A stretch of DNA of 41,326 bases from a virus (Duplodnaviria; Heunggongvirae; Uroviricota; Caudoviricetes), in IMG/VR virus record IMGVR_UViG_2548876945_000011, positions 1-41,326 of that record. One strand, 5' to 3'. The position numbers and the translations under genes are program-made. Position 1 is the first letter of the stretch; each line of letters begins with the position of its first letter. A model generated the notes under the pieces. It saw only the letters and a program-made list of their open reading frames with translations. It did not search any database and was not told the origin of the DNA. Positions 8,250 through 41,050 of the stretch are shown here, in pieces.

Positions 8250-8528
8250 TTAGGGAAACTGGCGTCTTGCGTGGATCACGTTTACTACTTCAACGCTTGA
8301 TGTTGTTACGCGGTATAGAATTATATAGTTAGGGTGGGCTACAATCTCACGCAAGCCAGGTACTCTGTCGCTTGGTGGGTATAAATACGGATGTTCGGAT
8401 AACGGCAGCACACAACCCCTTAATCGCTGCCATAAGCGTTCAGCCGCATCTATGTCGAAACGAGCAATATAGCTAGTTATATCATCTAGGTCGGTATCTG
8501 CGCTTTCAAGCCATAACACGGGTAACAT
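8250..8528 (-). CDS. parE: ParE/RelE-superfamily toxin
   Basis: 92-aa product from MLPVLWLESADTDLDDITSYIA... with the ParE-like C-terminal pattern; starts 1 nt after the antitoxin stop. Confidence 0.75.
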   Translation of the reverse strand: MLPVLWLESADTDLDDITSYIARFDIDAAERLWQRLRGCVLPLSEHPYLYPPSDRVPGLREIVAHPNYIILYRVTTSSVEVVNVIHARRQFP

Positions 8529-8529
8529 T

Positions 8530-8721
8530 TTACTGCTTGCTCCGTTCCTTGCGCATTTTAGCAAAGCGTTCTGCCATTCTGCGCTCAACTTCGTCATGGG
8601 GAATTGCTGGGCGCGGATCTGCAAGGCTCGTTGCTACTTTCGCACGCAGCCATTCGTTGTAACTGTTTTCTTGTTCAATGGTTTCAAATTCAGAAACCAT
8701 TGGTGAAAGGGCTCTATTCAT
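8530..8721 (-). CDS. paaA: Antitoxin of the ParE module (PaaA-like)
   Basis: 63-aa product MNRALSPMVSEFETIEQENSYNEWLRAK... with GGAGG RBS, immediately upstream of the toxin; resembles PaaA2 as I remember it. Confidence 0.6.
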   Translation of the reverse strand: MNRALSPMVSEFETIEQENSYNEWLRAKVATSLADPRPAIPHDEVERRMAERFAKMRKERSKQ

Positions 8722-8741: not shown

Positions 8742-9137
8742 TCAGGCGCGGCGGCATTTTTGCGCCGCAATCCATCTCGCTATGAGATCTTCCATTGATT
8801 CTTTTTTCTGCTTTAACTCGCTGATTATCTGGCGTTGCTCATCCTCAGGGAAGGCTGAAAAAATCTGCAATAATTCCAGTTGATTAGACGTTAACCCTGC
8901 ATGTGGTGGAGAAGCTTCCGGTTGTTCTGCGTATTCCGCATCCAGATACCCTTCCGGCATCCCGTATGTTTGCTCTATTCTTCTGGCAGCCTTTTCTCCA
9001 AACGAGGCCCTCCCACTCATTAGTTGAGATAGGTAGCTCTTCTCTTTGGGTGGCAGAGTTTTATCTTTAAACCACTCCTTGAGACGTAAACGGCGAATTT
9101 CTTTTTTTTGCATGTGGTAATTATCTTTAGTAATCAC
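8742..9137 (-). CDS. paaR: HTH XRE-family repressor (CI analogue, PaaR/RacR-like) lacking a peptidase domain
   Basis: 123-131 aa with HTH (KSYLSQLMSGRASFGEKAARRIEQ); divergent from ydaS; first gene of the repressor-antitoxin-toxin operon. The first in-frame codon is GTG at 9137; the first ATG is at 9113. Confidence 0.7.
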   Translation of the reverse strand: MITKDNYHMQKKEIRRLRLKEWFKDKTLPPKEKSYLSQLMSGRASFGEKAARRIEQTYGMPEGYLDAEYAEQPEASPPHAGLTSNQLELLQIFSAFPEDEQRQIISELKQKKESMEDLIARWIAAQKCRRA

Positions 9138-13480: not shown

Positions 13481-13770
13481 TGGTGGATTTACGTAAAGCG
13501 GCGCGGGGCCAGATGTGCCAGGTCAGAATCCCTGGCTACTGCAATCACAATCCCGAAACGTCTGTGCTGGCGCATTACCGACTGGCGGGAACGTGCGGAA
13601 CGGCGATAAAGCCACACGATATGCAGGCAGCGATTGCCTGTAGCTCGTGCCACGATTTAATCGACGGGCGGGTAAAAACCAGCGATTACACCAAAGAAGA
13701 ATTACGCCTGATGCACGCAGAAGGTGTTTTTCGCACACAAGAAATCTGGAGAAAGGAAGGTTATTTATGA
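13480..13770 (+). CDS. ybcO: YbcO-like putative nuclease (DUF1364)
   Basis: 96-aa ORF with conserved Cys pattern (CQVRIPGYCN...CSSCHD); resembles DLP12 YbcO as I remember it. Confidence 0.65.
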   Translation: MVDLRKAARGQMCQVRIPGYCNHNPETSVLAHYRLAGTCGTAIKPHDMQAAIACSSCHDLIDGRVKTSDYTKEELRLMHAEGVFRTQEIWRKEGYL

Positions 13771-14321
13771 TTTACCCAACGAATACAGGAAAAAGCGGAG
13801 AACACCTTCGTCTCACCACGCTGGAAAGTGTCTGGATTCAGGGAAAACTGCGTATGTGGGGGCGCTGGTCGTATATTGGTGGCGGTAAGACGGGGAATAT
13901 GTTCAACCAGTTGTTGACCTCTAAAAAGCTGACAAAAACGGAAATTAACGAGGCGCTCCGCAGGATGAAAAAAGCAGGTCTGGACAAACCTGAACTTGAG
14001 GCTTTTTTGCGGGGTATGATTAACGGCAAGCAAAAGAGCTGGCTGGCACATTGTACCGATTCAGAGGCATTAATAATCGACAGGGTTATTGGCGAAGTAC
14101 TGGCAGAACACCCAGGATTGATTTGTATCCTCCAGCAACGATATGAAGGGAGTGGGATGACTAAGCGAAAAATGGCTGAATTGCTGAATGATTCACACCC
14201 TGAGTGGTGTTACGCCACGTGCCGTAATCGCATAGATGCGTGGTTGAAAATGGCAGAGTTTATGCTCTATCTGCCGATGCGTGATGCATTCTCTTCCGGG
14301 GATTTAAAAACTGTCTGTTGA
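13767..14321 (+). CDS. Putative late antiterminator (Q-like)
   Basis: 184-aa ORF coupled to ybcO by an ATGA overlap; a promoter-plus-terminator pair follows directly; assignment by position and weak motif resemblance only. Confidence 0.4.
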   Translation: MIYPTNTGKSGEHLRLTTLESVWIQGKLRMWGRWSYIGGGKTGNMFNQLLTSKKLTKTEINEALRRMKKAGLDKPELEAFLRGMINGKQKSWLAHCTDSEALIIDRVIGEVLAEHPGLICILQQRYEGSGMTKRKMAELLNDSHPEWCYATCRNRIDAWLKMAEFMLYLPMRDAFSSGDLKTVC

Positions 14322-16206: not shown

Positions 16207-16304
16207 CGTTGTTAGGCTCCGGAAACATCCTCGACTTCTTGTTAGCAAGACTGAGAGCCTGAATCTTACACTTAGCACCATCCGAACTCTCGGAGGTGAG
16301 GCTT

Positions 16305-28646: not shown

Positions 28647-29099
28647 ATGGAATTCGAAATCAAAGGCGTGAAATATCGCGCGGCAAAACTCAGCGTTTTT
28701 GACCAGCTGAAAGTGACCCGCAAACTTCTTCCGGTACTGGCGGGGATGATGTCAGATTTCGGGAGCATTCGCTCCCGTTTGCCTGCTGATGGCAAAATCG
28801 ACACCGTGAAATTCGAGCAGTTAAAACCGGTGTTTGAAACCATGCTCCCGCGTATCGCTGAGGAACTGTCTTCCCTGACCGAAGATGACACCGATGCGAT
28901 TATTCATCCCTGTCTTGCGGTGGTATCGCGGCGTCATATGGACGGATGGGTGCCGGTATTTACCCGGGGCGAACTGATGTTTGATGATATTGACCTGCTG
29001 GTCATGCTGCAGCTGGTGGCGCGGGTGGTCGCCGATTCGCTGGGAAATTTTTTGCCTACACCCCTTACCAGCACGACGCAGAGCCTGCAACAGGGCTGA
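28647..29099 (+). CDS. Tail assembly chaperone (G-like)
   Basis: 150 aa immediately upstream of the tape measure gene; slippery TTTTTTG near its 3' end with an open -1 frame beyond the stop. Confidence 0.6.
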   Translation: MEFEIKGVKYRAAKLSVFDQLKVTRKLLPVLAGMMSDFGSIRSRLPADGKIDTVKFEQLKPVFETMLPRIAEELSSLTEDDTDAIIHPCLAVVSRRHMDGWVPVFTRGELMFDDIDLLVMLQLVARVVADSLGNFLPTPLTSTTQSLQQG

Positions 29100-29287
29100 C
29101 GTTTAACAGCCTGCCGGACGGGCTGTCCTACCTTCTCAATCCGGTTGACGCCGGGTTAATTCCTTATACAGCACTTAAAGATGGCTCTGTCGATTTGTAC
29201 GACATTGCTCTCTTGAATGACCATCTGGCGGTAAAAGCGGATAACCAGCGGCGCATTGAGAAATGGAGAGAGGATAATGAACGCTGA
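29048..29287 (+). other. Programmed -1 frameshift site and extension (G/GT-like fusion)
   Basis: Heptamer T TTT TTG at 29048-29054; the -1 frame is open for 77 codons to a TGA at 29285-29287, overlapping the tape measure start. Confidence 0.5.
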
Positions 29288-31283
29288 AACTATTAAAGAT
29301 TTCCTCGTCTCGCTTGGCTTCAGTGTGGATGATGCAGGAGCGAAAAAGTTCGGTTCTGTCCTCGCCGGTACAACTGCAAATGTCATCAAAATGGGGCTGG
29401 CTGTTGAAGGGGCTGCGCTGTCCGTGGTGGCCTTCACGGCTAAGATCGCCTCCGGTCTGGATAATCTTTACTGGGCGTCACAGCGCACCGGCGCGACGGT
29501 CCAGGGAATTCAGTCTATTGGCTATGCGGTTTCGCAGGTTGGCGGCAGTGTGGACGCTGCGCGATCTTCTCTGGAAAGCCTCTCCCGGTTTATTCGTAAC
29601 AATCCCGGAGCAGAAGGCTTTCTGAATCGCCTGGGCGTACAGACCCGTGATGCCAGCGGTAACATGCGTGACATGGCTGCTATCTTTACGGGCGTTGGAC
29701 AGAAACTCAGCAGCATGCCGTATTACCGGGCTAACCAGTATGCGCAGATGCTGGGCATTGACGAAAATACCCTGATGGCTATGCGTCGCGGAGTGGGGCA
29801 GTTCAGCGCTCAGTATTCAGAAATGGTGAAAGCGATCGGATTTAATGCCGATCAGGCTGCCTTATCGTCAAACCGGTTTATGACCTCGCTGAAATCGCTC
29901 GGTGAAATGGCCGGGATGGCGCGGGACAAAATCGGATCGAATCTTGCGGACGGACTGGCGGGGCAGATTGATAACCTGCGCAAAAAGATAATTGAAAATT
30001 TTCCCAAAATTGAAGTCACCATCACAAAGGTCATAAAAGGGATCCTCTGGCTGGGTGAGATAGTCGGGCGGGTAGCATTTCGGATAGTCGATGGTGTCGG
30101 AGATATCATCGAGTGGTGGGGGAAACTGGATGCCGAAACGAAAACCCTGATAGAGGTTATCGGCGGCCTGGTTGTCGCCATGCGGATACTTAACTCTACT
30201 TTCTGGATGTCACCTATAGGGCTGATTACTGGTCTGATCGTGGCTCTCGGTCTCTTGTGGGAAGACTACAAAACATGGAAAGAAGGCGGTAACAGCCTTA
30301 TCGACTGGGAAAAATGGCAACCGGCAATAGATAAAGCGAAGGATGCGATCACCTGGTTCCGCGACAAATTACTCGAGCTGAAAGACAGCGTGGGGGGATG
30401 GCAAAAATCATTGGAAATCCTCGGTACATTCATCGCGGGTGTCTGGATATCCAAGGTTCTGGGGGCTTTCGGAAAAATATCAGGTTTGCCGATCCCACCC
30501 TGGCTTAAATTGTGGGCGCTTTACGCGGGTTATATTGTTAGTGACAGAGAAAATATTGCCGATAGCGCAAAATCTTCACTGAGGTATACGAAGCGAATTA
30601 TCGGCGACACGCTGGCTGCTATTGGTATAAAAACAGATATCGGACGCAGGGATGTCAGTGAGGTCCGTGAATGGCCTGCGTGGATGGACTGGTTGCACGG
30701 GGGACCCGGTAAAGTTATCCGGCAGGGACAGAGTAACGGTGTAGTGCATGGCTCCAACGTCCAGCCCGACATCCCCGGCGGCGGCACTCTTGCTGATCGT
30801 AACAATAACCCCGGGAACATTCGCCCGGTGAGCGGTAAAGGGTTCCGGTTTTTCGAATCAGCGCTTGAGGGCTGGGAGGCGATGAAAAACCAGCTCATGC
30901 GTTACTTTACCGGGAAAACAACCGGACGGGCATTACAGACTATTCAGGATATTGTCAGTACCTGGGCCCCGGCAGGTGATAACAACGATCCGAAAAAGTA
31001 TGCACAGGATGTTGCGAAATGGATGGGAGTATCACCGAATGCAATATTGAATCTTACAGATCCCCGGACTATGGGTGCATTGATGCAGTCGATGGCGCGC
31101 AAAGAAGGTTATTCAAACTGGAACAGCCCGCTGGCGTATCAGGCCGCCGCTGGCAGCCTTAACCAGCAGACTGTTATAAATGTTCATGGAGTTAACAACC
31201 CTCAGGAGGCGGCTAATCTGATCGCTGACAAGCAGGGGGCTGTAAATGCCAGGGCGGTACAGCAATTGAAAGGACCTGCGTAA
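29277..31283 (+). CDS. Tail tape measure protein
   Basis: 668 aa, helical and Gly/Ala-rich with hydrophobic segments; GGAGAGAGG RBS; follows the chaperone. Confidence 0.75.
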   Translation: MNAETIKDFLVSLGFSVDDAGAKKFGSVLAGTTANVIKMGLAVEGAALSVVAFTAKIASGLDNLYWASQRTGATVQGIQSIGYAVSQVGGSVDAARSSLESLSRFIRNNPGAEGFLNRLGVQTRDASGNMRDMAAIFTGVGQKLSSMPYYRANQYAQMLGIDENTLMAMRRGVGQFSAQYSEMVKAIGFNADQAALSSNRFMTSLKSLGEMAGMARDKIGSNLADGLAGQIDNLRKKIIENFPKIEVTITKVIKGILWLGEIVGRVAFRIVDGVGDIIEWWGKLDAETKTLIEVIGGLVVAMRILNSTFWMSPIGLITGLIVALGLLWEDYKTWKEGGNSLIDWEKWQPAIDKAKDAITWFRDKLLELKDSVGGWQKSLEILGTFIAGVWISKVLGAFGKISGLPIPPWLKLWALYAGYIVSDRENIADSAKSSLRYTKRIIGDTLAAIGIKTDIGRRDVSEVREWPAWMDWLHGGPGKVIRQGQSNGVVHGSNVQPDIPGGGTLADRNNNPGNIRPVSGKGFRFFESALEGWEAMKNQLMRYFTGKTTGRALQTIQDIVSTWAPAGDNNDPKKYAQDVAKWMGVSPNAILNLTDPRTMGALMQSMARKEGYSNWNSPLAYQAAAGSLNQQTVINVHGVNNPQEAANLIADKQGAVNARAVQQLKGPA

Positions 31284-31933
31284 TGGACTTTTTATCTGTT
31301 TTACTGCAGCAGCGAACCCGCTCAATAGGAATCATTATTCCTGATGTGGTTATTACCGAAAAGCACACAGACGCCCTGGAAATTACGGAACATCCGGTTG
31401 AACAGCCCACGAATGCTGGTGCCAGTGGTGAGGGTGCTGGTTACATATCAGAACACGCATTCAGGCGCCCTTCTGAGGTTGTGATGGAAACCGGTTTTTC
31501 CGGAGGCGGATCGCTGCTTGATTTTGCCAGTAACCTGACGGCTACCAGTTTACTGGGGCTGAGCCCGAAAGAACTGTATCAGGAACTGCTTAACCTGCAG
31601 CGGAATCGTATTCCTTTCGATGTGACAACCGGCAAGCGTATTTACAACAATATGTTGATAAAAACGCTGGAGGTCACGACCGATAAGAGTAGTGAAAATG
31701 TGCTTCTGGCGACACTTACCCTCAGGGAAGTAATTATTACCTCCACGCAGTCAGTCAGGGTTGCCCCGAAAAACAATATGACCGAGGGAGTCGGAACGTC
31801 TGCTGTGCAGAATACAGGCACCAAAACAACGGTGCCGCCGAATAATTCCATTCTGAAATCGCTGCCACAGATGGCGCAAGAAGGTATCTCCACTGTTGAT
31901 GGGTATTTGAGCAATTTATTTCTGGGAAGGTGA
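31283..31933 (+). CDS. Putative tail/baseplate protein
   Basis: 216-aa ORF coupled to the tape measure stop. Confidence 0.45.
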   Translation: MDFLSVLLQQRTRSIGIIIPDVVITEKHTDALEITEHPVEQPTNAGASGEGAGYISEHAFRRPSEVVMETGFSGGGSLLDFASNLTATSLLGLSPKELYQELLNLQRNRIPFDVTTGKRIYNNMLIKTLEVTTDKSSENVLLATLTLREVIITSTQSVRVAPKNNMTEGVGTSAVQNTGTKTTVPPNNSILKSLPQMAQEGISTVDGYLSNLFLGR

Positions 31934-31936
31934 TTC

Positions 31937-32239
31937 ATGAAAGCCGTAGAAATCCCACTGGTTGCTGACAATCAGACTTTTGCCACCACAATTAACGGTT
32001 CGGTTTATCACCTGTCTGTCATCTGGCGAGGCGAGTACTGGGTTCTGGATCTTGCTGACAGCAATGGCTCCGCCATTATATCAGGTATACCGATGATTAC
32101 GGGGGCTGACCTGCTGGCACAGTATCGATATATGGATCTGGGTTTTTCTCTGGTGGTGCTCTGCGACGTGGCAGGGCAGGAGAATCCGACGCAATTCGAT
32201 CTTGGAACGCTCTCACACCTCTATGTTTTCACGGAGTAA
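31937..32239 (+). CDS. Hypothetical tail protein
   Basis: 100-aa ORF within the tail operon. Confidence 0.4.
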   Translation: MKAVEIPLVADNQTFATTINGSVYHLSVIWRGEYWVLDLADSNGSAIISGIPMITGADLLAQYRYMDLGFSLVVLCDVAGQENPTQFDLGTLSHLYVFTE

Positions 32240-32241
32240 CA

Positions 32242-33273
32242 ATGTCGAAAAACTGGATGCGTCACTTTGAATTATTGCTTGTTGATGATAAGGGCGACGG
32301 GATAAAAATTTCTGAGCTTAAAGTCACTTTCAATATTCAGAAAATGCCTGCGACCATATTCAATGGATTCGTTGGGAATTTTAAGGTTTATAACCTGTCC
32401 CCTACCACTCAGAACCGGATTATGCAGAAGGAGTTTTCGCGTATACAGGTTATTGCCGGATACAAGGGGCAACCGGATGCAGCAGGTAATTATCCTGATG
32501 AAAACGTTGGTATGATATTCAATGGAGATATCCGTTTTACTGTCACTGGTAAAGATAATGCCACGGACAGTTGGATCATGTTGCAGTGTATTGACAGCTG
32601 GGAAGGCCACCTGAACGCAAGTGTGAAAACCACAGTGGCAGCTGGCTGGAAGTACAGAGATCTTTTCAGTCTGGGTATGAAATCATTCGAACCATATGGC
32701 ATCGAATCCGGCGCAGTTCCTGACATGCCTGAAACGGTATTTCCCCGGGGTCGCGTTGTTTATCAAAACACATCAAGGTTGATGAATCATATCGCAGGGC
32801 AGTGTAAGGCTAACTGGTGGTATGAAAATAATCTGGTAAATATTGTTCCTGAAGATAAATATATTGGTGTTGCTACGGTGTTGAATGCTAACACCGGGCT
32901 TATCGGTATGCCACAGCAGACGATGGGAGCTGGCGTAAATGTCAGATGTCTGATTAATCCAAATATTAAGCTCGGTGGGCTTATTCGTCTGGATCAGGCA
33001 TCTGTATACCGTGCCTCTTTGAGTAATGACCAGGTAGCGAAATCGCCAGCACGACTGGATGAGTCTGAAAGCGACGGTAATCTCTACGTTAACGGTCTGC
33101 CAGGCATGTCACAGCCTGCCAGCATTAATACTGACGGTGATTACATTGTGGGCAGCATTGATTATACTGGCGACACCCGAGGGCAGGCGTGGTATATGGA
33201 CCTGCTTTGCCTGGCTAAAGGTGGCAAAGAATTGCTTAACTCGAAAGGGATTGATGCGGCGAAATACACATGA
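32242..33273 (+). CDS. Putative baseplate hub protein
   Basis: 343-aa ORF upstream of the spike, gp25-like and baseplate J genes (Mu-like order). Confidence 0.5.
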   Translation: MSKNWMRHFELLLVDDKGDGIKISELKVTFNIQKMPATIFNGFVGNFKVYNLSPTTQNRIMQKEFSRIQVIAGYKGQPDAAGNYPDENVGMIFNGDIRFTVTGKDNATDSWIMLQCIDSWEGHLNASVKTTVAAGWKYRDLFSLGMKSFEPYGIESGAVPDMPETVFPRGRVVYQNTSRLMNHIAGQCKANWWYENNLVNIVPEDKYIGVATVLNANTGLIGMPQQTMGAGVNVRCLINPNIKLGGLIRLDQASVYRASLSNDQVAKSPARLDESESDGNLYVNGLPGMSQPASINTDGDYIVGSIDYTGDTRGQAWYMDLLCLAKGGKELLNSKGIDAAKYT

Positions 33274-33605
33274 AAAGACCATTGTTGACAGTTTTACTTG
33301 TCTGTATCTCCTTCATTTCCTTTGCTGATACCGGTTGCGGACCATTTACGATCAACTGGAAAGCGCAAGACGGACTTGCAAGGATTAATGGACAGAAACC
33401 GGAGACACAGAAAATCATCTTTCTCAAACAGGAAGGTGATTATGATAATGTGAACATCCAATGGATGATTCCGGGTAATGGGCGTTGGTTAGGGATGGAT
33501 TTTGTGGCCAGAAATGGCAAGCCGATCCTCAACGTTGAAGTTATCCGCAAAAATATGGACGAGCCTCGGGAGTTATGGACGTATGATTGCCGGAAGGTGA
33601 AGTGA
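33270..33605 (+). CDS. Secreted hypothetical protein inside the baseplate operon
   Basis: 111 aa with Sec signal peptide (MKRPLLTVLLVCISFISFA/DTG) and two Cys in the mature part; ATGA overlap with the hub gene. Confidence 0.55.
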   Translation: MKRPLLTVLLVCISFISFADTGCGPFTINWKAQDGLARINGQKPETQKIIFLKQEGDYDNVNIQWMIPGNGRWLGMDFVARNGKPILNVEVIRKNMDEPRELWTYDCRKVK

Positions 33606-33680
33606 ATTACATTGGCGTCCAGCTTCTGCAGAACAGCATGGATGCGCCGAAAATCATCGGTTCCTTTCCATGCAAAAAGA

Positions 33681-33708
33681 TTGTTGATTAATCACTCGTA
33701 ATTATAAT
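33681..33708 (+). promoter_or_regulatory. Candidate sigma70 promoter for the small membrane-protein gene
   Basis: TTGTTG, 16-bp spacer, consensus TATAAT, about 35 nt upstream of an AAGGAA RBS. Confidence 0.45.
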
Positions 33709-33744
33709 GTGATACTTCTACTTTCACGATAAGGAATTTGTCAC

Positions 33745-33984
33745 ATGTTCGGATTTGATAAATTAATAACTCCAAAAATCATCAACGTTCTGTATGGCAT
33801 CACAATGTTACTTCTGGTTGTTGCCGCCATTATAACGTTTGTTAATGGGAAGGCTGCTGGCGCTTTAGTGCTTTTGTTATGTGCTGTATTTTGCCGAATA
33901 TTCTTTGAGTGCATCATGGTTTCATTTAAAAACAATGAGTATCTTCGCCGAATAGCTGAAGCGTTAGAAGCAAACAAGCAGTAA
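33745..33984 (+). CDS. Small two-helix membrane protein (DUF4282-like)
   Basis: 79 aa (MFGFDKLITPKIINVLYGITMLLLVVAAI...); about 37.5% GC by hand count; flanked by its own promoter and terminator. Confidence 0.6.
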   Translation: MFGFDKLITPKIINVLYGITMLLLVVAAIITFVNGKAAGALVLLLCAVFCRIFFECIMVSFKNNEYLRRIAEALEANKQ

Positions 33985-34002
33985 TGAAACTTCAATAATG
34001 AA

Positions 34003-34024
34003 CCCGCCACCCGGCGGGTTTTTT
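34003..34024 (+). terminator. Intrinsic terminator after the small membrane-protein gene
   Basis: CCCGCC-ACCC-GGCGGG hairpin followed by TTTTTT, 20 nt upstream of the next baseplate gene. Confidence 0.65.
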
Positions 34025-34043
34025 ACTTTCTGGAGACATATGA

Positions 34044-34796
34044 ATGCCCGTTTCTTTAAGCGCTCAACTTGGTAGCAAAGAACAGGCCGATGTAAGACTT
34101 GCTGGCTCTGTCATGTCGGCGCTGCGTGTTTCTATGCCCGGCATCGTCCAGTCATTTGATCCGGACACGGTAACAGTGGTTGTTCAACCTGCGATTAAAG
34201 GCTATGAGCCGGACTCAAATGGAATCAACCAGTCGACGACATTACCCCTGCTGGTGGATGTGCCAGTGGTATTTCCGCGCGGCGGAGGCTGTACGTTGAC
34301 TTTTCCGGTAAAAGCCGGTGATGAATGTCTGGTGATTTTTGCTGATCGTTGTATTGATTTCTGGTGGCAGAACGGCGGGATACAGGAGCCGGTCGATGAC
34401 AGAATGCATGATTTATCGGATGGGTTTTGTATTGTCGGTCCCCAGTCGCAGGCGAGGAAGATTAGCGGTATTAATACCAGTGCTACACAGTTGCGTAGTG
34501 ACGACGGCAGCACCTATTTTGAGCTTAATCCTGATACCCGGAAAATTAAAATTGTCGCTCCGGGGGGGCTTGATGTGGTTGCCCCTCTGGCTGATTTTTC
34601 TGAGAAAGTAACCATTCATGGCCTGTTAACCTGGATGGGTGGCATGGTGGGGTCTGTTGTTTCTGGTGTGGCTTCAAAAATCACTGGTGCTGTTGAGTTT
34701 TTGGGTAGCGTGAAGGCTAACGGCAAGCCAATCGATGATACGCACACTCATGGCGGTGTTCAGCGCGGTGGAAGCAATACCGATGGGGTAAACTGA
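34044..34796 (+). CDS. Baseplate assembly/spike protein (gpV-like)
   Basis: 250-aa ORF with GGAGA RBS at the spike position of a Mu-like baseplate cluster. Confidence 0.5.
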   Translation: MPVSLSAQLGSKEQADVRLAGSVMSALRVSMPGIVQSFDPDTVTVVVQPAIKGYEPDSNGINQSTTLPLLVDVPVVFPRGGGCTLTFPVKAGDECLVIFADRCIDFWWQNGGIQEPVDDRMHDLSDGFCIVGPQSQARKISGINTSATQLRSDDGSTYFELNPDTRKIKIVAPGGLDVVAPLADFSEKVTIHGLLTWMGGMVGSVVSGVASKITGAVEFLGSVKANGKPIDDTHTHGGVQRGGSNTDGVN

Positions 34797-35149
34797 TGCG
34801 ATACAGACGTGAAGACGCCGATGGCGATTACACCTTTGGCAGCGGTGATGACACCTGGCTGATTAACTCACCGGAGGCCGTGGCGCAGGCGGTAAAAACG
34901 CGATTCGAATTGTGGTATGGGCAATGGTTTCTCGACACCACCGAAGGGACTCCGTGGATCCAGTCCGTGCTCGGTAAGCAGAAGCCGGAAACCTACAACC
35001 TGGCGATCCGTAAGCGCATCCTCGAAACGCGGGGCGTTAAATCAATCCTCTCTTTCAATACGACAGTGGATACCACGACCCGACGTGTCATGTTTTCCGC
35101 TGAAATCGACACTCTTTATGGAATAACGACTGTTACATCGGAGGCGTAA
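34796..35149 (+). CDS. Baseplate wedge protein (gp25/W-like)
   Basis: 117-aa ORF between the spike and baseplate J genes. Confidence 0.5.
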   Translation: MRYRREDADGDYTFGSGDDTWLINSPEAVAQAVKTRFELWYGQWFLDTTEGTPWIQSVLGKQKPETYNLAIRKRILETRGVKSILSFNTTVDTTTRRVMFSAEIDTLYGITTVTSEA

Positions 35150-36348
35150 TGGCTCTGAACCTTGATTCTCTCGGTTTATCTGCAAAGGTAACCGCGGAGG
35201 GGATCAGTGCGCCTGATTATCAGACGATACTCAGCACCCTGATTAGCTATTTTCAGCAGATTTATGGCAGTGATGCCTACCTCGAACCGGACAGCAAAGA
35301 CGGCCAGATGGTGGCTCTGATGGCGTTGGCGATTCATGATGCCAATAATACGGCGATAACTGTCTACAACTGTTTTTCACCGGCAACCGGCTATGGGGCT
35401 GCACTGACCAGTAACGTGAAAATAAATGGTATTTCACGTAAAGGCGCGACGAATTCTACGGTTGATTTGCTTCTTACAGGAACTGCCGGAACAACCATCA
35501 TTAATGGCAGCGTGAAAGACAGTAATAATGTGATATGGCGTTTGCCTGCTTCAGTGGTGGTCGGCGTGGATGGTACAGTGATGGTGACTGCAACATGTTC
35601 CGTCAGTGGTGCAGTGGCGGCGCTGGCTGGAACTATCACTGAAATAAATACGCCAACCCGTGGCTGGGTTTCGGTAACTAATCCTGCTGCGGCTACCGTG
35701 GGCACTCCGGCAGAAACTGACGCGGAGTTACGTATCCGCCAGTCGCAAAGTGTTGCGTTGCCATCAATAACCCCATTTGAAGCACTGGATGGTGCTGTTT
35801 CTAATGTTACCGGTGTAACCCGCCACAAACTCTATGAAAACGATACTGGTTCGGAGGACGGTAACGGGTTACCGCCACACTCTGTTGCTGTAATTGTGGA
35901 TGGCGGTGATGTAACGGATATTGCTCAGGCTATCAGAGGGAATAAAGGCCAGGGGACAGCCACTCACGGTACAACATCCGTTACGGTTCCGGATAAATAC
36001 GGCAATCCCCATGTAATCAAATTCTCGCGTTCCAGTGATGTGCCTGTTTATGCCCGGATTAAATTAAAAGTTTTTACGGGTTATACCTCACAGATAGGGC
36101 AGCAGATCCAGCAGGCTATTTCCGACTATATCAATAGTCTGATGATTGGTAATTCGGTCCTTTTAAGTCGCATTTACTCACCGGCGAATCTTGGCGTGGT
36201 GAGTGGCGGGAATGCACGCTATTACGATATTCAGGAACTGACGATTGGGAAATCCCCGGGGGCTTTGTCGTCATCAAACATTGATATCAGATATAACGAA
36301 TCTGCGTCCTGTACCCCGGAAAATATCGTTATAACGGTGGAGTCATGA
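35149..36348 (+). CDS. Baseplate J-like protein
   Basis: 399-aa ORF, the size and position typical of baseplate J (Mu gp47-like). Confidence 0.65.
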   Translation: MALNLDSLGLSAKVTAEGISAPDYQTILSTLISYFQQIYGSDAYLEPDSKDGQMVALMALAIHDANNTAITVYNCFSPATGYGAALTSNVKINGISRKGATNSTVDLLLTGTAGTTIINGSVKDSNNVIWRLPASVVVGVDGTVMVTATCSVSGAVAALAGTITEINTPTRGWVSVTNPAAATVGTPAETDAELRIRQSQSVALPSITPFEALDGAVSNVTGVTRHKLYENDTGSEDGNGLPPHSVAVIVDGGDVTDIAQAIRGNKGQGTATHGTTSVTVPDKYGNPHVIKFSRSSDVPVYARIKLKVFTGYTSQIGQQIQQAISDYINSLMIGNSVLLSRIYSPANLGVVSGGNARYYDIQELTIGKSPGALSSSNIDIRYNESASCTPENIVITVES

Positions 36349-37025
36349 GCAAATACACCGAACTAATCACGAACTACCACGCCACCAAACCTAAATTTCT
36401 TGCACATGTTGATCTGATGACCCGGCCGCTTATTGATGTTGCGGCTGCCACCAGAGGGCTGATTACTGCATTTGATATTGACTCTGCGGTTGGTGTGCAA
36501 CTTGACATTCTGGGATTGTGGATCGGACGTAGCCGTGTTGTCAGCCAGCCTATTTCAGGTGTCTATTTCAGCTGGGATACCGACGGGCTTGGATATGATC
36601 AGGGTGTATGGCAGGGGCCATACGATCCTGATTCCGGATACATGTACCTCAGCGATGAAACTTATCGTGTCATCCTTAAAGCGAAGATTGCGATTAATAA
36701 CTGGGACGGACGGAATGATTCGCTTCCGGCAATTCTTGACGCGGCAACAGCAGGATCCGGACTGCGAATGCAGATAGTCGATAACCAGGACATGACGATA
36801 TCGGTCTGGGTCTTTCCTGATACTGATATTTCAGATGTATCGCGTGAGTTAATTGCGGCAATTAAACAGGGGTATCTCACAGTAAAAGCCGCCGGGGTAT
36901 GGGCGGGTGGCATTGAAACACCTTCGGTGGAAACCCCATCGGAAGGCTCAAAATTTTTTGGTTTTGATATGGATAACGAATTCATCAGTGGTTTTGATGT
37001 AGGAGCATGGGGAGTATTACTCTGA
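36345..37025 (+). CDS. Baseplate/tail protein (gpI-like)
   Basis: 226-aa ORF immediately upstream of the tail fiber gene, joined to it by an ATGA overlap. Confidence 0.5.
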   Translation: MSKYTELITNYHATKPKFLAHVDLMTRPLIDVAAATRGLITAFDIDSAVGVQLDILGLWIGRSRVVSQPISGVYFSWDTDGLGYDQGVWQGPYDPDSGYMYLSDETYRVILKAKIAINNWDGRNDSLPAILDAATAGSGLRMQIVDNQDMTISVWVFPDTDISDVSRELIAAIKQGYLTVKAAGVWAGGIETPSVETPSEGSKFFGFDMDNEFISGFDVGAWGVLL

Positions 37026-37834
37026 TGGCGAAAAATGACTTTAAAGCGTTTGCAACGGATCGAAATGCCAATGTTATATCGCAGGAGGAATGGGAAGCGT
37101 TGCCCGCGCTTTTATCTGGATTTACAGCAGGGAAAGCCTCCAGTGCGCAAGTCAATAAGGTTATTCGGCAGGCCAGCTTTATTGCTGCAGCTCTGGCCCA
37201 GTTTGTAAGTGATAAAACGCAACGGGATGTGCTTGATAATGGTGATCTGCCCGGTTTTGTTGAATTGCTGGGATCGGGGTTTGCTGTTGAATACCTGAGC
37301 CGCAAGAATCCGTTTGGTGATATCAAATCGGATGGCACGGTGAAAACGGCTCTCGAAAACCTTGGTTTGGGAGAAGGCTCTGCATTACCGGTTGGTGTGC
37401 CTGTTCCGTGGCCTTCAGCCACTCCGCCAACGGGGTGGCTAAAATGTAACGGAGCAGTATTTTCTTCTGAAAAGTACCCAAATCTGGCAAAGGCTTACCC
37501 AACATTAAAATTACCAGATTTACGCGGTGAATTTATTCGTGGCTGGGATGATGGGCGCGGGATTGACTCTGGTCGTAACTTATTATCTGCACAGAATGAT
37601 GCAATTCAGAATATTGTTGGTTCTTTTGGGCGTACCCAGCTTTTTAGAGACGTACTTAGTTCAGGGCCATTTAGTCAACATGGGCAAGTATTATCTACAG
37701 GTCTAAAGGAAGCCGAAATTATTGATGGTTATGGCGCTTATAACTGGACATTCGACGCATCTCGCTCAGTTCGCACAGCATCTGAAACCCGCTCCCGTAA
37801 CATCGCCTTTAATTATATTGTGAGGGCTGCATGA
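37025..37834 (+). CDS. Tail fiber protein (constant N-terminus plus invertible C-terminal collar domain)
   Basis: Tail-collar-like motif PVGVPVPWP...LPDLRGEFIRGWDDGRGIDSGR; the crossover site at 37350-37375 lies inside the ORF. Confidence 0.7.
   Translation: MAKNDFKAFATDRNANVISQEEWEALPALLSGFTAGKASSAQVNKVIRQASFIAAALAQFVSDKTQRDVLDNGDLPGFVELLGSGFAVEYLSRKNPFGDIKSDGTVKTALENLGLGEGSALPVGVPVPWPSATPPTGWLKCNGAVFSSEKYPNLAKAYPTLKLPDLRGEFIRGWDDGRGIDSGRNLLSAQNDAIQNIVGSFGRTQLFRDVLSSGPFSQHGQVLSTGLKEAEIIDGYGAYNWTFDASRSVRTASETRSRNIAFNYIVRAA
37350..37375. repeat. Left crossover site of the invertible segment (hix/gix-like)
   Basis: CTCTCGAAAACCTTGGTTTGGGAGAA fits the Hin/Gin-family consensus TTnTnnnAAACCnnGGTTTnnnAnAA; its right 14 bp are a perfect inverted copy of 39295-39308. 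Confidence 0.65.
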
Positions 37835-38436
37835 TAAGTAAAGCTGTATTAAATAATGAACTCATCGCCACAAAGGCCGGAGACATTACCGTTTATAATT
37901 ATGATGGTGAAACACGGGAATATATTTCCACATCAACTGAATATCTTGCTGTGGGTGTCGGTATCCCGGCATGTTCCTGTTTAGATGCTCCTGGCTCATA
38001 TAAAGCTGGTTATGCAATTTGCCGTTCTGCAGATTTTAACTCATGGGAATATGTGCCAGACCATCGCGGTGAAGTTGTCTATAGTACCGAAACGGGAGAT
38101 ACCAAAGAAATCGCAGTTCCGGGTGATTATCCTGAAAATACAACCACTATCGCCCCGTTAACGCCATACGATGAATGGGATGGTGAGAAATGGGTGACCG
38201 ATACTGAAGCACAGCATAGCGCCGCAGTAGGCGCGGCAGAAGCACAGCGTCAGTCACTGATTGATACTGCAATGGCTTCCATTAGTCTGATTCAACTGAA
38301 ATTGCAGGCCGGGCGGAAGCTGACGCAGACAGAAAACACCCGACTTAACGCTGTGCTGGATTACATTGACGCGGTGACTGCAACAGATACCAGCACCGCG
38401 CCGGATGTCATCTGGCCTGAACTACCGGAGGCGTAG
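37831..38436 (+). CDS. Tail fiber assembly protein
   Basis: 201 aa with C-terminal ...APDVIWPELP motif typical of Tfa proteins; follows the fiber gene. Confidence 0.7.
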   Translation: MISKAVLNNELIATKAGDITVYNYDGETREYISTSTEYLAVGVGIPACSCLDAPGSYKAGYAICRSADFNSWEYVPDHRGEVVYSTETGDTKEIAVPGDYPENTTTIAPLTPYDEWDGEKWVTDTEAQHSAAVGAAEAQRQSLIDTAMASISLIQLKLQAGRKLTQTENTRLNAVLDYIDAVTATDTSTAPDVIWPELPEA

Positions 38437-38851
38437 GCCATTCAATATCTGGAGCACTGGAGGTATCAACCAGTTCCAGTGCGTCCAGATAATCCAGCCA
38501 TAAATTATATTGTTCCAGCTCGTAACCTTTCAGACGACCAATAGCAGCTTTGCCAGGCCACTGATGGGTATTGATGTAGTTATTGACTTCTGAAACCAAA
38601 GATATCTTTTTCATTTCAGCCGCCAGCATCTCATCCTCTTTTGAAGGCGGCGGGGAATTAATCCATATTGGCCGTCCTGAACTGTCAGCGCCAATTTCTT
38701 TCCCTTCTGGATGCAGCCCAAGAAATTGCTCATATGTTTCTCTGGTAATTTCAATAACATCATCAGGAAGCGTTCCCGCATCCTCATATTCTGGAAACAA
38801 TTCTTGCAGATAAAAACTTTTACTTGCGGGTGAAAAGAATACTGAGTTCAT
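38408..38851 (-). CDS. Alternative tail fiber assembly protein (inverted orientation)
   Basis: 147 aa on the opposite strand with C-terminal ...APDIEWPTPP motif; convergent with the first tfa. Confidence 0.7.
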   Translation of the reverse strand: MNSVFFSPASKSFYLQELFPEYEDAGTLPDDVIEITRETYEQFLGLHPEGKEIGADSSGRPIWINSPPPSKEDEMLAAEMKKISLVSEVNNYINTHQWPGKAAIGRLKGYELEQYNLWLDYLDALELVDTSSAPDIEWPTPPVVQAR

Positions 38852-38853
38852 TC

Positions 38854-39348
38854 TTACCGTCCAATGATTAACGCTGAGACGCTGGTATCTGAAGGAAAGG
38901 CTGCATTCAGTGGTTTGTCGACTTTGAACACAATCGTATTATTCCCCCTGACAGCGGCAAAAGAACAAACCGCCGTCGCGTATGAACCTGTAATATTACT
39001 GGATACACCACCATAAGCTGTTGTTGATACCAGAGGGATAACGCCCAGCACCTTATTAGGAAATACAAAGGGCAATGTGGCTGTGGCAATATAAGACTTA
39101 TTAGAACCTGTAATGGCATAAGCATTATCAGTCATTCCATTCATCGCCACTGGACCGCTTATACTTACAGTAACCATCTGAATGATTAGCCCGTCAGGTT
39201 GACGAATCACAAAATTTCCATTGCCACCAGTAACCGTCCAGAAAGACATATCAGGGATTTGGTTTTCCCCGTTGCCCACATTTCGTTTTGCCGCTTCTCC
39301 CAAACCAACGTTTATGAAAATGCAGAAATAACGAGCAAATGGCATCAT
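38854..39348 (-). CDS. Alternative tail fiber C-terminal segment (expressed only after inversion)
   Basis: Minus-strand ORF whose N-terminal region encodes GLGE across the right crossover site, matching ENLGLGEG at the left site; lacks its own plausible start. Confidence 0.55.
   Translation of the reverse strand: MMPFARYFCIFINVGLGEAAKRNVGNGENQIPDMSFWTVTGGNGNFVIRQPDGLIIQMVTVSISGPVAMNGMTDNAYAITGSNKSYIATATLPFVFPNKVLGVIPLVSTTAYGGVSSNITGSYATAVCSFAAVRGNNTIVFKVDKPLNAAFPSDTSVSALIIGR
39295..39320. repeat. Right crossover site of the invertible segment
   Basis: TTCTCCCAAACCAACGTTTATGAAAA; inverted match to the left site with identical central dinucleotide after inversion. Confidence 0.65.
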
Positions 39349-39374
39349 TCCTGCTTTTGTCAGGGGGATCTACC

Positions 39375-39929
39375 ATGCTTATTGGCTATGTACGCGTATC
39401 AACAAATGACCAGAACACAGATCTACAACGTAATGCGCTGAACTGTGCAGGATGCGAGCTGATTTTTGAAGACAAGATAAGCGGCACAAAGTCCGAAAGG
39501 CCGGGACTGAAAAAACTGCTCAGGACATTATCGGCAGGTGACACTCTGGTTGTCTGGAAGCTGGATCGGCTGGGGCGTAGTATGCGGCATCTTGTCGTGC
39601 TGGTGGAGGAGTTGCGCGAACGAGGCATCAACTTTCGTAGTCTGACGGATTCAATTGATACCAGCACACCAATGGGACGCTTTTTCTTTCATGTGATGGG
39701 TGCCCTGGCTGAAATGGAGCGTGAACTGATTGTTGAACGAACAAAAGCTGGACTGGAAGCTGCTCGCGCACAGGGACGAATTGGTGGACGTCGCCCCAAA
39801 CTTACACCAGAACAATGGGCGCAGGCCGGGCGACTAATTGCATCAGGAGTTCCTCGCCAGAAGGTGGCGATCATTTATGATGTTGGCGTATCGACTTTGT
39901 ATAAGAAGTTTCCGGTCGGAGATAAATGA
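39375..39929 (+). CDS. pin: Serine DNA invertase (Pin/Gin/Hin/Cin family)
   Basis: 184 aa from MLIGYVRVSTNDQNTDLQRNAL... with catalytic-Ser N-terminus and C-terminal HTH; adjacent to the invertible segment. Confidence 0.85.
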   Translation: MLIGYVRVSTNDQNTDLQRNALNCAGCELIFEDKISGTKSERPGLKKLLRTLSAGDTLVVWKLDRLGRSMRHLVVLVEELRERGINFRSLTDSIDTSTPMGRFFFHVMGALAEMERELIVERTKAGLEAARAQGRIGGRRPKLTPEQWAQAGRLIASGVPRQKVAIIYDVGVSTLYKKFPVGDK

Positions 39930-40253: not shown

Positions 40254-40393
40254 CTTTTTATCTGTTAAAAGCCAGAAGCATTTCCTTCGCTGACTTTATA
40301 GTCAACCATAACACACACTCTACTGTCTGAGTCCAGCGTTTTTTAACATTCTTGTTAAGATTATGTGATCTTTAGCGCGGGAGGAAAATATTG

Positions 40394-41050
40394 ATGAAAC
40401 AGCCTGCGCCCGTTTATCAGAGAATTGCGGGTCATCAATGGCGACATATCTGGCTTTCTGGCGATATACACGGTTGTCTTGAGCAGTTGCGCCGCAAATT
40501 ATGGCATTGTCGTTTTGATCCGTGGCGAGATTTACTTATCTCAGTGGGAGACGTTATCGATCGTGGGCCGCAAAGTTTACGTTGTCTGCAGTTACTGGAA
40601 CAACATTGGGTTTGTGCGGTAAGAGGCAATCATGAACAGATGGCGATGGATGCGCTGGCATCCCAGCAGATGTCTTTGTGGTTGATGAATGGCGGCGACT
40701 GGTTTATTGCGCTGGCAGATAATCAACAGAAACAAGCGAAAACGGCGCTGGAAAAATGTCAGCATTTGCCCTTTATTCTTGAAGTACACAGTCGCACCGG
40801 CAAGCATGTTATTGCTCATGCCGATTATCCAGATGATGTTTATGAATGGCAAAAGGACGTTGATTTGCATCAGGTCTTGTGGAGCCGCTCGCGATTAGGT
40901 GAACGCCAAAAAGGGCAGGGAATTACAGGTGCTGATCATTTCTGGTTTGGTCATACACCGTTGCGACATCGCGTGGATATTGGCAACCTGCATTATATTG
41001 ATACCGGTGCTGTCTTTGGGGGCGAACTGACTCTTGTGCAATTGCAATAA
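40394..41050 (+). CDS. pphA: Serine/threonine protein phosphatase 1 (host gene)
   Basis: 218 aa with metallophosphatase motifs (GDIHGC, GDVIDRG, GNHE); matches my memory of E. coli PphA; GGGAGGAAAAT RBS. Confidence 0.85.
   Translation: MKQPAPVYQRIAGHQWRHIWLSGDIHGCLEQLRRKLWHCRFDPWRDLLISVGDVIDRGPQSLRCLQLLEQHWVCAVRGNHEQMAMDALASQQMSLWLMNGGDWFIALADNQQKQAKTALEKCQHLPFILEVHSRTGKHVIAHADYPDDVYEWQKDVDLHQVLWSRSRLGERQKGQGITGADHFWFGHTPLRHRVDIGNLHYIDTGAVFGGELTLVQLQ

Follow-up and report, generated by a model that had tools for sequence, protein, structure and literature searches.

A gene-swapping slot in the baseplate operon of a lambdoid Escherichia coli prophage, with a secreted-type protein and a DUF4282 membrane protein as its predicted accessory products

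The DNA analyzed here (the window: the whole 41,326-nucleotide IMG/VR record IMGVR_UViG_2548876945_000011) is a lambdoid, SEN34-like myovirus prophage of Escherichia coli; it matches a chromosomal prophage of E. coli CDE6306 at 100% identity over the query. Two small open reading frames (ORFs) lie between its baseplate hub and spike genes: ORF1 encodes a secreted-type protein of 111 amino acids (aa), and ORF2 encodes a DUF4282 inner-membrane protein of 79 aa. The explanation that we favor, with a probability of about 0.55 for the whole, is that both sit in an accessory-gene bay inside the baseplate operon: a σ70-type promoter embedded in the hub gene, ORF1, exchangeable cargo (here the DUF4282 gene) and a strong intrinsic terminator right before the ribosome-binding site (RBS) of the spike gene would together permit expression in the lysogen, where the two proteins would exclude superinfecting phages. 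Envelope-level exclusion as the function of ORF1 and the DUF4282 protein is our best guess, drawn from analogy and held tentatively, at clearly less than even odds; the boldest version, in which the bay is a purpose-built, insulated device for lysogen expression and the two proteins found two previously unrecognised families of envelope-level exclusion factors, one periplasmic and one in the inner membrane, is more doubtful still. The features on which the argument turns are as follows, in window coordinates.

32242-33273, plus strand: baseplate hub gene (Pfam E217_GP41; phrog_196, 'baseplate hub').
33140-33168, plus strand: promoter-like site within the hub gene, ATTACA, 17-nucleotide (nt) spacer, TATACT (promoter scan; synonymous-site conservation).
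33231-33524, plus strand: allele-replacement block, the last ~13 hub codons and the first ~255 nt of ORF1 (window compared with locus L002).
33270-33605, plus strand: ORF1, 111 aa, a predicted Sec signal peptide (residues 1-19) followed by a mature part of ~92 aa (phrog_3443; no Pfam family).
33617-33691, plus strand: fossil of the 3' end of the 'B' allele of ORF1 (direct reading; alignment to intact B-allele genes in loci L005, L006 and L009).
33681-33708, plus strand: promoter-like site of the ORF2 cassette, TTGTTG (33681-33686), 16-nt spacer, TATAAT (33703-33708) (motif reading; Hafnia counterpart).
33731-33736, plus strand: RBS of ORF2, AAGGAA (sequence reading).
33745-33984, plus strand: ORF2, 79 aa, DUF4282 two-helix inner-membrane protein (Pfam, phrog, AlphaFold2).
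34001-34024, plus strand: intrinsic terminator, 8-bp GC-rich stem, 4-nt loop, T6 (folding; conservation in loci).
34044-34796, plus strand: baseplate spike gene, right flank of the slot (Pfam spike N-terminal domain, PF18352, and Apex motif).

The hub-ORF1-spike slot is a gene-swapping hot spot. We surveyed 96 loci in which ORF1 and the spike gene are both present, 80 of them on IMG/VR contigs and the others in genomes and phages (individual loci are cited by L number). ORF1 and the spike gene lie 64 to 2,418 nt apart, and at least 20 alternative cargo sets, most of them without a known family, occupy this space: DUF4282, Phd/Doc, an antitoxin-Doc-lipoprotein set, Arc/Mnt and Bro-N antirepressors, an HExxH protein, lipoproteins and membrane proteins. 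Examples of slot cargo (L108-L187, IMG/VR) are found at L165:4383-5150, L024:4665-5066, L154:4611-5174 and L129:4651-6458. The wider repertoire includes a recurrent pair of 256-aa and 134-aa proteins with a weak HEPN_IX hint (E = 0.004), a 309-aa and 209-aa pair, a 188-aa HExxH protein and, on the opposite strand, a zinc-ribbon/tRNA_anti-like membrane protein; PADLOC returned no significant match for ten slot cargo proteins.

The right border of this slot is fixed, and the terminator is that border. Its sequence, AACCCGCC-ACCC-GGCGGGTT followed by the T-run, folds at -18.9 kcal/mol (z = -4.1), and the spike RBS, GGAG, comes 8 nt past the T-run. A GC-rich hairpin with a T-run lies no more than 70 nt from the spike start in 92 of the 96 loci, and as a variant in one more, regardless of cargo; the empty slots of L131 (64 nt) and L164 (75 nt) contain little else. 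Because the terminator is kept with all cargo types and in empty slots, it is resident in the slot and was not brought by the DUF4282 insert. The stem core, CCCGC/GCGGG, is constant and only the loops vary, so covariation offers no evidence for the hairpin. The three loci that have no terminator before the spike gene (L124, L170 and L171) are those with a zinc-ribbon membrane protein of 222 aa as cargo, encoded on the opposite strand. A copy of the DUF4282 gene in a Klebsiella siphovirus prophage is followed by a very similar hairpin and RBS, as if the terminator moved with the cassette; we rejected this idea because the terminator of HK97 gp15 has the same CCCGC/GCGGG stem, which thus marks a common terminator type.

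What would drive transcription of such a slot? The 3' end of the hub gene, which overlaps the start of ORF1 with its stop codon, harbors within its last 130 nt a promoter-like site that lies ~100 nt upstream of ORF1 and is marked by an absence of synonymous change. When 80 distinct hub sequences are aligned codon by codon (median nucleotide identity 70%; 216 conserved-residue codon columns), only four of the 216 columns have no synonymous variation at all, and three of these are GAT 33139, TAT 33163 and ACT 33166; TAC 33142 scores 0.10. The two adjacent codon pairs with the lowest variation in the gene coincide exactly with the -10 and -35 hexamers, and none of 200,000 random sets of four columns was as low; the outcome is the same with an unbiased Trp/Met anchor and with the full codon alignment. 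Three codon positions downstream of the site, a Thr codon uses all four synonymous forms. The sole hub sequence with a residue change at the -10 Thr codon reads TATAAT there, and divergent hub types have TTTATA-17-TACACT at the equivalent place. We infer a conserved σ70-type promoter, predicted to serve ORF1 and any cargo up to the resident terminator.

The first gene downstream of this site, ORF1, starts inside the hub stop codon, its ATG overlapping that codon as ATGA at 33270-33273. Its N-terminus, MKRPLLTVLLVCISFISFA followed by DT after the predicted cleavage point, is built like a Sec signal peptide, with a positive, a hydrophobic and a small-x-small part (MKR, then PLLTVLLVCISFISF, then S-F-A before D), and hydropathy peaks over residues 2-23. 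The N-terminal 20 residues of its homologues differ in sequence, remaining hydrophobic with a small-x-small motif, and the mature part is well conserved; these N-terminal features and the conserved mature domain predict a Sec-exported periplasmic protein. The initial annotation had proposed the signal peptide, the ATGA coupling to the hub gene and two Cys residues; the first two points hold, and the third is right for the mature part, the precursor having three (positions 12, 23 and 107), of which the mature-part Cys23 and Cys107 are invariant across 51 homologues. The predicted fold of the mature part is an eight-stranded β-barrel, which would be periplasmic and disulfide-bonded. ORF1 has no lipobox ([LVI][ASTVI][GAS]C): D-T-G precede Cys23, and the -1 residue is Q in most homologues. 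It matches phrog_3443, a family with no annotated function, over residues 6-111 (E = 8.7e-42) and nothing in Pfam, NCBIfam or PADLOC; a profile search of Protein Data Bank sequences yielded nanobody noise only, and ORF1 shows neither a Pfam family match nor a close structural match to the PliC/MliC lysozyme inhibitors. With just 53 relatives at E <= 0.001 among 1.84 billion representative proteins, the family is small and compact.

In all 96 loci, which come from E. coli, Salmonella, Klebsiella, Pectobacterium, Erwinia and IMG/VR contigs, ORF1 follows the hub gene, directly so in every locus but one, and it is exchanged there as discrete alleles. Between the window and L002, identity is 23-73% inside the 294-nt block 33231-33524 and 100% on either side of it. 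Among backbones with 94-100% identity in the Dit, plug, hub, gp25-like and J proteins, most of which also have the spike allele in common, the mature part of ORF1 is either 99% or 70% identical. The last 86 nt of ORF1 are common to its alleles and are probably a recombination anchor. Which ORF1 allele is present is independent of the alleles of the hub, spike and tape-measure genes. Allele swapping, replacement or outright absence, and this independence together make ORF1 behave as a specificity or arms-race determinant, unlike a fitted structural part; by this comparison, ORF1 is a resident, exchangeable, non-structural accessory gene. An unrelated 113-aa protein with a signal peptide of its own substitutes for ORF1 in L004 (3254-3595) and comes after ORF1 in L126 (4330-4671); these two backbones share hub and spike genes, and the ORF1 position seems to favor secreted proteins.

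ORF2 is the cargo of the slot in the window. It matches Pfam DUF4282 (PF14110) at 42.2 bits (cut-off 27, E = 1.2e-10, profile positions 2-85 of 86), the profile comparison that the initial annotation had proposed as a check, and phrog_12129 at E = 8e-48; PADLOC holds no match to it, and Rfam finds no RNA family over 32900-34300. The annotated two-helix, 79-aa membrane protein is recovered in the AlphaFold2 model (predicted local distance difference test score 87.5) as a helical hairpin with long helices at residues 10-33 and 37-78, predicted to have both termini in the cytoplasm (N-in/C-in); R51 and E55, both in the second helix, are among its invariant residues. The G+C content, which had been put at about 37.5% by hand count, is exactly 37.5%, against 45% in the hub gene, 51% in the spike gene and 48.5% in the window, and falls within the lowest 3.5% of 240-nt windows. 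An 89-aa ORF on the minus strand (33741-34010) runs antisense over the DUF4282 gene; we rejected it because homologue and Pfam support belong to the DUF4282 gene. The antisense ORF is the longer of the two and is therefore the one that a naive longest-ORF selection picks.

The DUF4282 gene occupies the slot in 18 of the ~96 related loci, the remaining loci having other cargo or none. Prophages whose hub proteins share just 48% identity with that of the window carry an essentially unchanged cassette (33617-34024). Of 5,426 complete E. coli genomes, 84 (1.5%) have it at 99% identity or more, on the chromosome every time, and these carriers make up 84 of the 311 E. coli genomes with a match to part of the hub-to-spike query. 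The Juhala/Hendrix definition of a moron (PMC3594210) names a gene that relatives lack at the same position, a deviating base composition, a promoter and a terminator of its own, and expression from the repressed prophage. The DUF4282 gene is a real, recently spread insertion and, by the first two of these traits, a classical moron, as far as genome comparison can tell.

Upstream of ORF2, the cassette promoter-like site sits 36 nt ahead of the ATG, and the Hafnia copy of the cassette, which is 65% identical, has TTGATG-16-TAAAAT at an equal distance. The pattern TTGNNN-N16-18-TATAAT occurs once in the window, both strands counted, where 1.3 occurrences are expected, so the motif by itself is not beyond chance; its weight comes from its position and the Hafnia match. 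The -35 hexamer is supplied by a fossil. The window has a full-length ORF1 of one allele, then 11 nt, then the last ~75 nt of a donor allele, which reads to VQLLQNSMDAPKIIGSFPCKKIVD and a stop codon in another frame. This stretch, 33617-33691, is out of frame and has no start codon and is thus a recombination fossil. In the donor-type prophages L005, L006 and L009, the same TTGTTG lies within the final codons (KKIVD and stop) of their own ORF1 allele. The DUF4282 cassette would have come by recombination from a prophage with another ORF1 allele, leaving 75 nt of that allele behind. At L147:4297-4461 the same B-allele 3' fossil (ending in NYIGVQLLQNSMDAPKVIGSFPCKK) precedes another cargo, a minus-strand ORF of 151 aa, which shows that the fossil does not go with the DUF4282 cassette alone.

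All the sequence features that the initial annotation listed are present where it placed them, and its view of both genes as non-structural accessories is supported by the comparison of relatives. Its reading of 33270-34024 as an insertion stands for the DUF4282 gene and fails for ORF1, which is resident after the hub gene in relatives. The ORF2 unit, described there as self-contained, does have a promoter-like site and an RBS, but its terminator belongs to the slot and its -35 hexamer to a fossil allele. Copies of both genes with structural annotation in all related clusters had been named as the finding that would speak against accessory status: ORF1 is indeed present in those clusters, with no such annotation, and the DUF4282 gene is confined to a minority of them. 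Finally, the tail had been assigned to a Mu-like baseplate cluster; it is of the SEN34/Pam3/E217 kind and not Mu-like in particular.

A terminator in the middle of a late structural operon calls for a way past it, and the initial annotation had offered antitermination or lysogen-specific expression. Antitermination fits, as the window encodes a Q-type factor upstream of the holin gene at 16296:

13647-14321, plus strand: Q-type late antiterminator gene (Pfam DUF1133, E = 1e-104; Phage_antitermQ, 30.3 bits against a cut-off of 26).

The tail operon of HK97, too, has internal terminators, four of them annotated. In the lysogen, the hub-internal and cassette promoters would give ORF1 and DUF4282 transcripts that end at 34024, and the spike and downstream baseplate genes would stay silent owing to the terminator. 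After induction, RNA polymerase modified by Q would pass the slot terminator, as it does in the late operons of other lambdoid phages. The two products would then act independently of each other: in the periplasm, ORF1 would protect the lysogen from superinfecting phages in the manner of T4 Spackle or of the receptor-masking Llp and Cor; in the inner membrane, the DUF4282 protein would block superinfecting phages in the manner of HK97 gp15, P22 SieA or T4 Imm.

The closest parallel for ORF2 is HK97 gp15, which is expressed from the prophage and blocks DNA entry (review PMC3594210; Juhala et al., 2000; Cumby et al., 2012). Both are genes for small inner-membrane proteins inserted in a lambdoid tail operon and deviating in base composition, and both show the order gene, terminator, next tail gene, with a CCCGC/GCGGG-stem terminator a few nt before that next gene. 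The proteins themselves are dissimilar: BLASTP finds no alignment between them at E <= 100, and gp15 is a 62-aa protein with one membrane helix, whereas ORF2 has 79 aa and two helices. The positions differ as well, gp15 lying between the tail chaperone and tape-measure genes of a siphovirus, ORF2 between hub/ORF1 and spike in a myovirus. For ORF1, the models are small envelope proteins that phages N15, phi80 and HK022 exemplify with Cor, a receptor-masking exclusion protein. Like ORF1, Cor and T5 Llp are encoded next to tail or receptor-binding genes; unlike ORF1, which has no lipobox, they are lipoproteins. T4 Spackle (PMC7677548) and T5 Llp (PMC9586334) are small phage proteins that are exported to the envelope and block superinfection there. 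ORF1, with its predicted eight-stranded β-barrel, differs from Spackle, and fold searches gave no Spackle match. We also considered that ORF1 neutralizes a lytic domain in the tail tip of its own phage, an idea weakened by the independent assortment of ORF1 alleles with respect to tape-measure and spike alleles and by the absence of a Pfam lytic domain from the tape-measure protein. As a whole, the slot resembles the defense and accessory hot spots of P2-like phages and P4-like satellites (PMC9122126), in which many accessory sets are exchanged between conserved flanks at a fixed backbone position; it differs in belonging to another phage family, in lying inside the baseplate operon and not near cos or att, and in having a promoter-like site, a secreted-protein gene and a terminator that are all resident.

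Several observations weigh against a lysogen-expressed exclusion bay. Both promoters, hub-internal and cassette, are predictions made from sequence; the frozen synonymous sites in the hub gene could serve another nucleic-acid function instead; the -35 hexamer of the cassette site fits the consensus at just three of six positions, for which reason the promoter scan did not list it; and the Erwinia DUF4282 copy has no good promoter equivalent. As to exclusion, neither ORF1 nor ORF2 matches any PHROG family annotated with a function or any PADLOC entry, ORF1 fold searches return generic small barrels only, and the tape-measure protein of the window, with no Pfam lytic domain, weakens the analogy to Spackle. 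DUF4282 homologues also have a life outside phages: copies 63-69% identical are found at non-phage chromosomal loci in Pantoea, Franconibacter, Erwinia and Edaphovirga; conserved chromosomal loci adjoin PTS/bgl genes in Serratia and GntR/TonB-receptor genes in Enterobacter; and a fixed non-phage locus (37-43% identity) is situated between accA and yaeR/tilS, downstream of dnaE. (The accA-yaeR/tilS loci in our set, L066-L072, L080 and L085, come from non-coli Escherichia and Pseudocitrobacter.) Such chromosomal homologues point to a general membrane role rather than a phage-specific one.

A serious rival, at less than even odds, is thus that the DUF4282 protein is a general membrane-physiology factor, for instance in stress tolerance or transporter modulation, which was captured from host chromosomes and helps the lysogen in ways other than exclusion. 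Most of the 80 species-level homologue loci, the 63-69% identical copies among them, are ordinary chromosomal sites, and ORF2 has a weak Pfam match to the inner-membrane protein YbhQ. Against this stands the repeated placement of DUF4282 genes inside modules for the tail tip or the tape measure, in at least three tail types that are unrelated, a habit of entry-exclusion morons that permissive insertion sites could also explain. Apart from the slot described here, homologues directly follow the tape-measure genes of GF-2-like myoviruses and of a Klebsiella siphovirus prophage (4501-4743 in L025, Edwardsiella phage GF-2; 4001-4243 in the Klebsiella loci L010-L012; also L039-L044). The DUF4282 gene of GF-2 begins right at the stop codon of the tape-measure gene and is followed by an Arc/Ant module. 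That arrangement also lends something to an improbable reading in which ORF1 and ORF2 are ordinary late genes of the tail operon, their promoter matches are due to chance and the hairpin is an RNA-stability or attenuation element, as do the chance-level frequency of the TTGTTG-16-TATAAT pattern window-wide and a promoter scan that finds no excess of promoter-like sites in 29000-38000. Against it, the freezing of synonymous sites coincides exactly with both hexamers of the hub-internal site, and the promoter position is conserved between the E. coli and Hafnia cassettes; moreover, low G+C content in a self-contained unit is the classic moron signature (PMC3594210), and the toxin-antitoxin and repressor/antirepressor genes found as slot cargo are typically prophage-expressed.

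Could ORF1 itself be a structural or assembly part of the baseplate, its hydrophobic N-terminus serving as an uncleaved, membrane-active helix in the tail tip? Its strict place after the hub gene, the overlapping stop and start codons in most relatives and its retention in 504 viral contigs across Enterobacterales are what one would expect of such a part. We nevertheless consider it quite improbable: 99% or 70% alleles, or an unrelated secreted protein, occur in backbones with an identical hub and mostly the same spike allele; ORF1 is absent from the Hafnia relative and from GF-2, which have the same baseplate type; the variable hydrophobic N-terminus with its cleavage motif contrasts with a conserved mature part and its two invariant Cys; and some source databases name homologues 'secreted' or 'exported' protein. 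Least likely of all is that the DUF4282 protein is a small membrane toxin, a holin-like or abortive-infection effector held in check in the lysogen. It is small and hydrophobic, with the charged, invariant R51 and E55 inside its second helix, and relatives carry toxin-antitoxin cargo in the same slot; yet no partner gene or antisense RNA is evident, the Rfam and PADLOC searches are empty, and single-copy chromosomal homologues at fixed loci speak against toxicity.

How much of the bay is new? A low-G+C gene for a small membrane protein, with a promoter and a terminator, in a lambdoid tail operon is a textbook moron, an already known kind, and nothing in these findings contradicts current understanding. 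Beyond the textbook are the frame that is resident in the slot (a promoter-like site embedded in the hub gene and constrained at synonymous positions, a secreted protein that swaps alleles and a fixed terminator) and the largely unannotated cargo; within the limits of the searchable literature we found no paper that describes this frame or the cargo repertoire, none on 'DUF4282' and nothing relevant on 'STY1065'. The SEN34 genome paper does not discuss genes of the ORF1 or ORF2 type and reports no proteomics (PMC5261728). If both proteins do block phage entry, two widespread families would join the short list of envelope-level exclusion factors, which matter for the host range of therapeutic phages and for competition between prophages. 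The hub-internal site would clearly illustrate how a regulatory signal can be preserved within the codons of a structural gene, and the slot is a practical place to seek new prophage cargo because most gene sets in it match no known family. Should the proteins act otherwise, the region would still illustrate cleanly an ordinary tail-operon moron.

The rest of the window agrees with the assignment given at the outset. The early and lysis side comprises a lambda-type integrase gene, RecE/RecT genes, a replication module, the Q-type antiterminator gene and a holin/lysis cassette; the contractile tail has sheath, tube and tape-measure genes; and the simple baseplate consists of a Dit-like protein, a Pam3-gp18-like plug, the E217-gp41-like hub, the membrane-piercing spike, a gp25-like sheath initiator, baseplate J, a DUF2612 wedge protein and tail fibers. 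Among named phages, the window is closest to Salmonella phage SEN34 (Brunovirus), a myovirus by morphology whose genome is lambda-like (PMC5261728), and to several induced prophages of E. coli and Klebsiella. In the window the spike and gp25-like genes abut; in Salmonella relatives a 45-aa ORF lies between them (L018:5653-5790; SEN34_23 in L027:5165-5302), and this may be a second small insertion site.

Three regions farther from the slot also deserve mention. Near the early/immunity region, a ParE-family toxin gene occupies 8250-8624 on the minus strand; its neighbor, an ORF at 8742-9137 on the same strand, has no Pfam match. Past the baseplate genes, 38408-39929 looks like an invertible host-range switch of the Mu Gin or P1 Cin kind: a resolvase-type DNA invertase gene (39339-39929) stands beside an oppositely oriented tail-fiber C-terminal segment (38854-39348) and a tail-fiber assembly gene (38408-38851). 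At the far end of the prophage, beyond the tail-fiber and invertase region, a calcineurin-like metallophosphatase gene is encoded on the plus strand (40391-41050).

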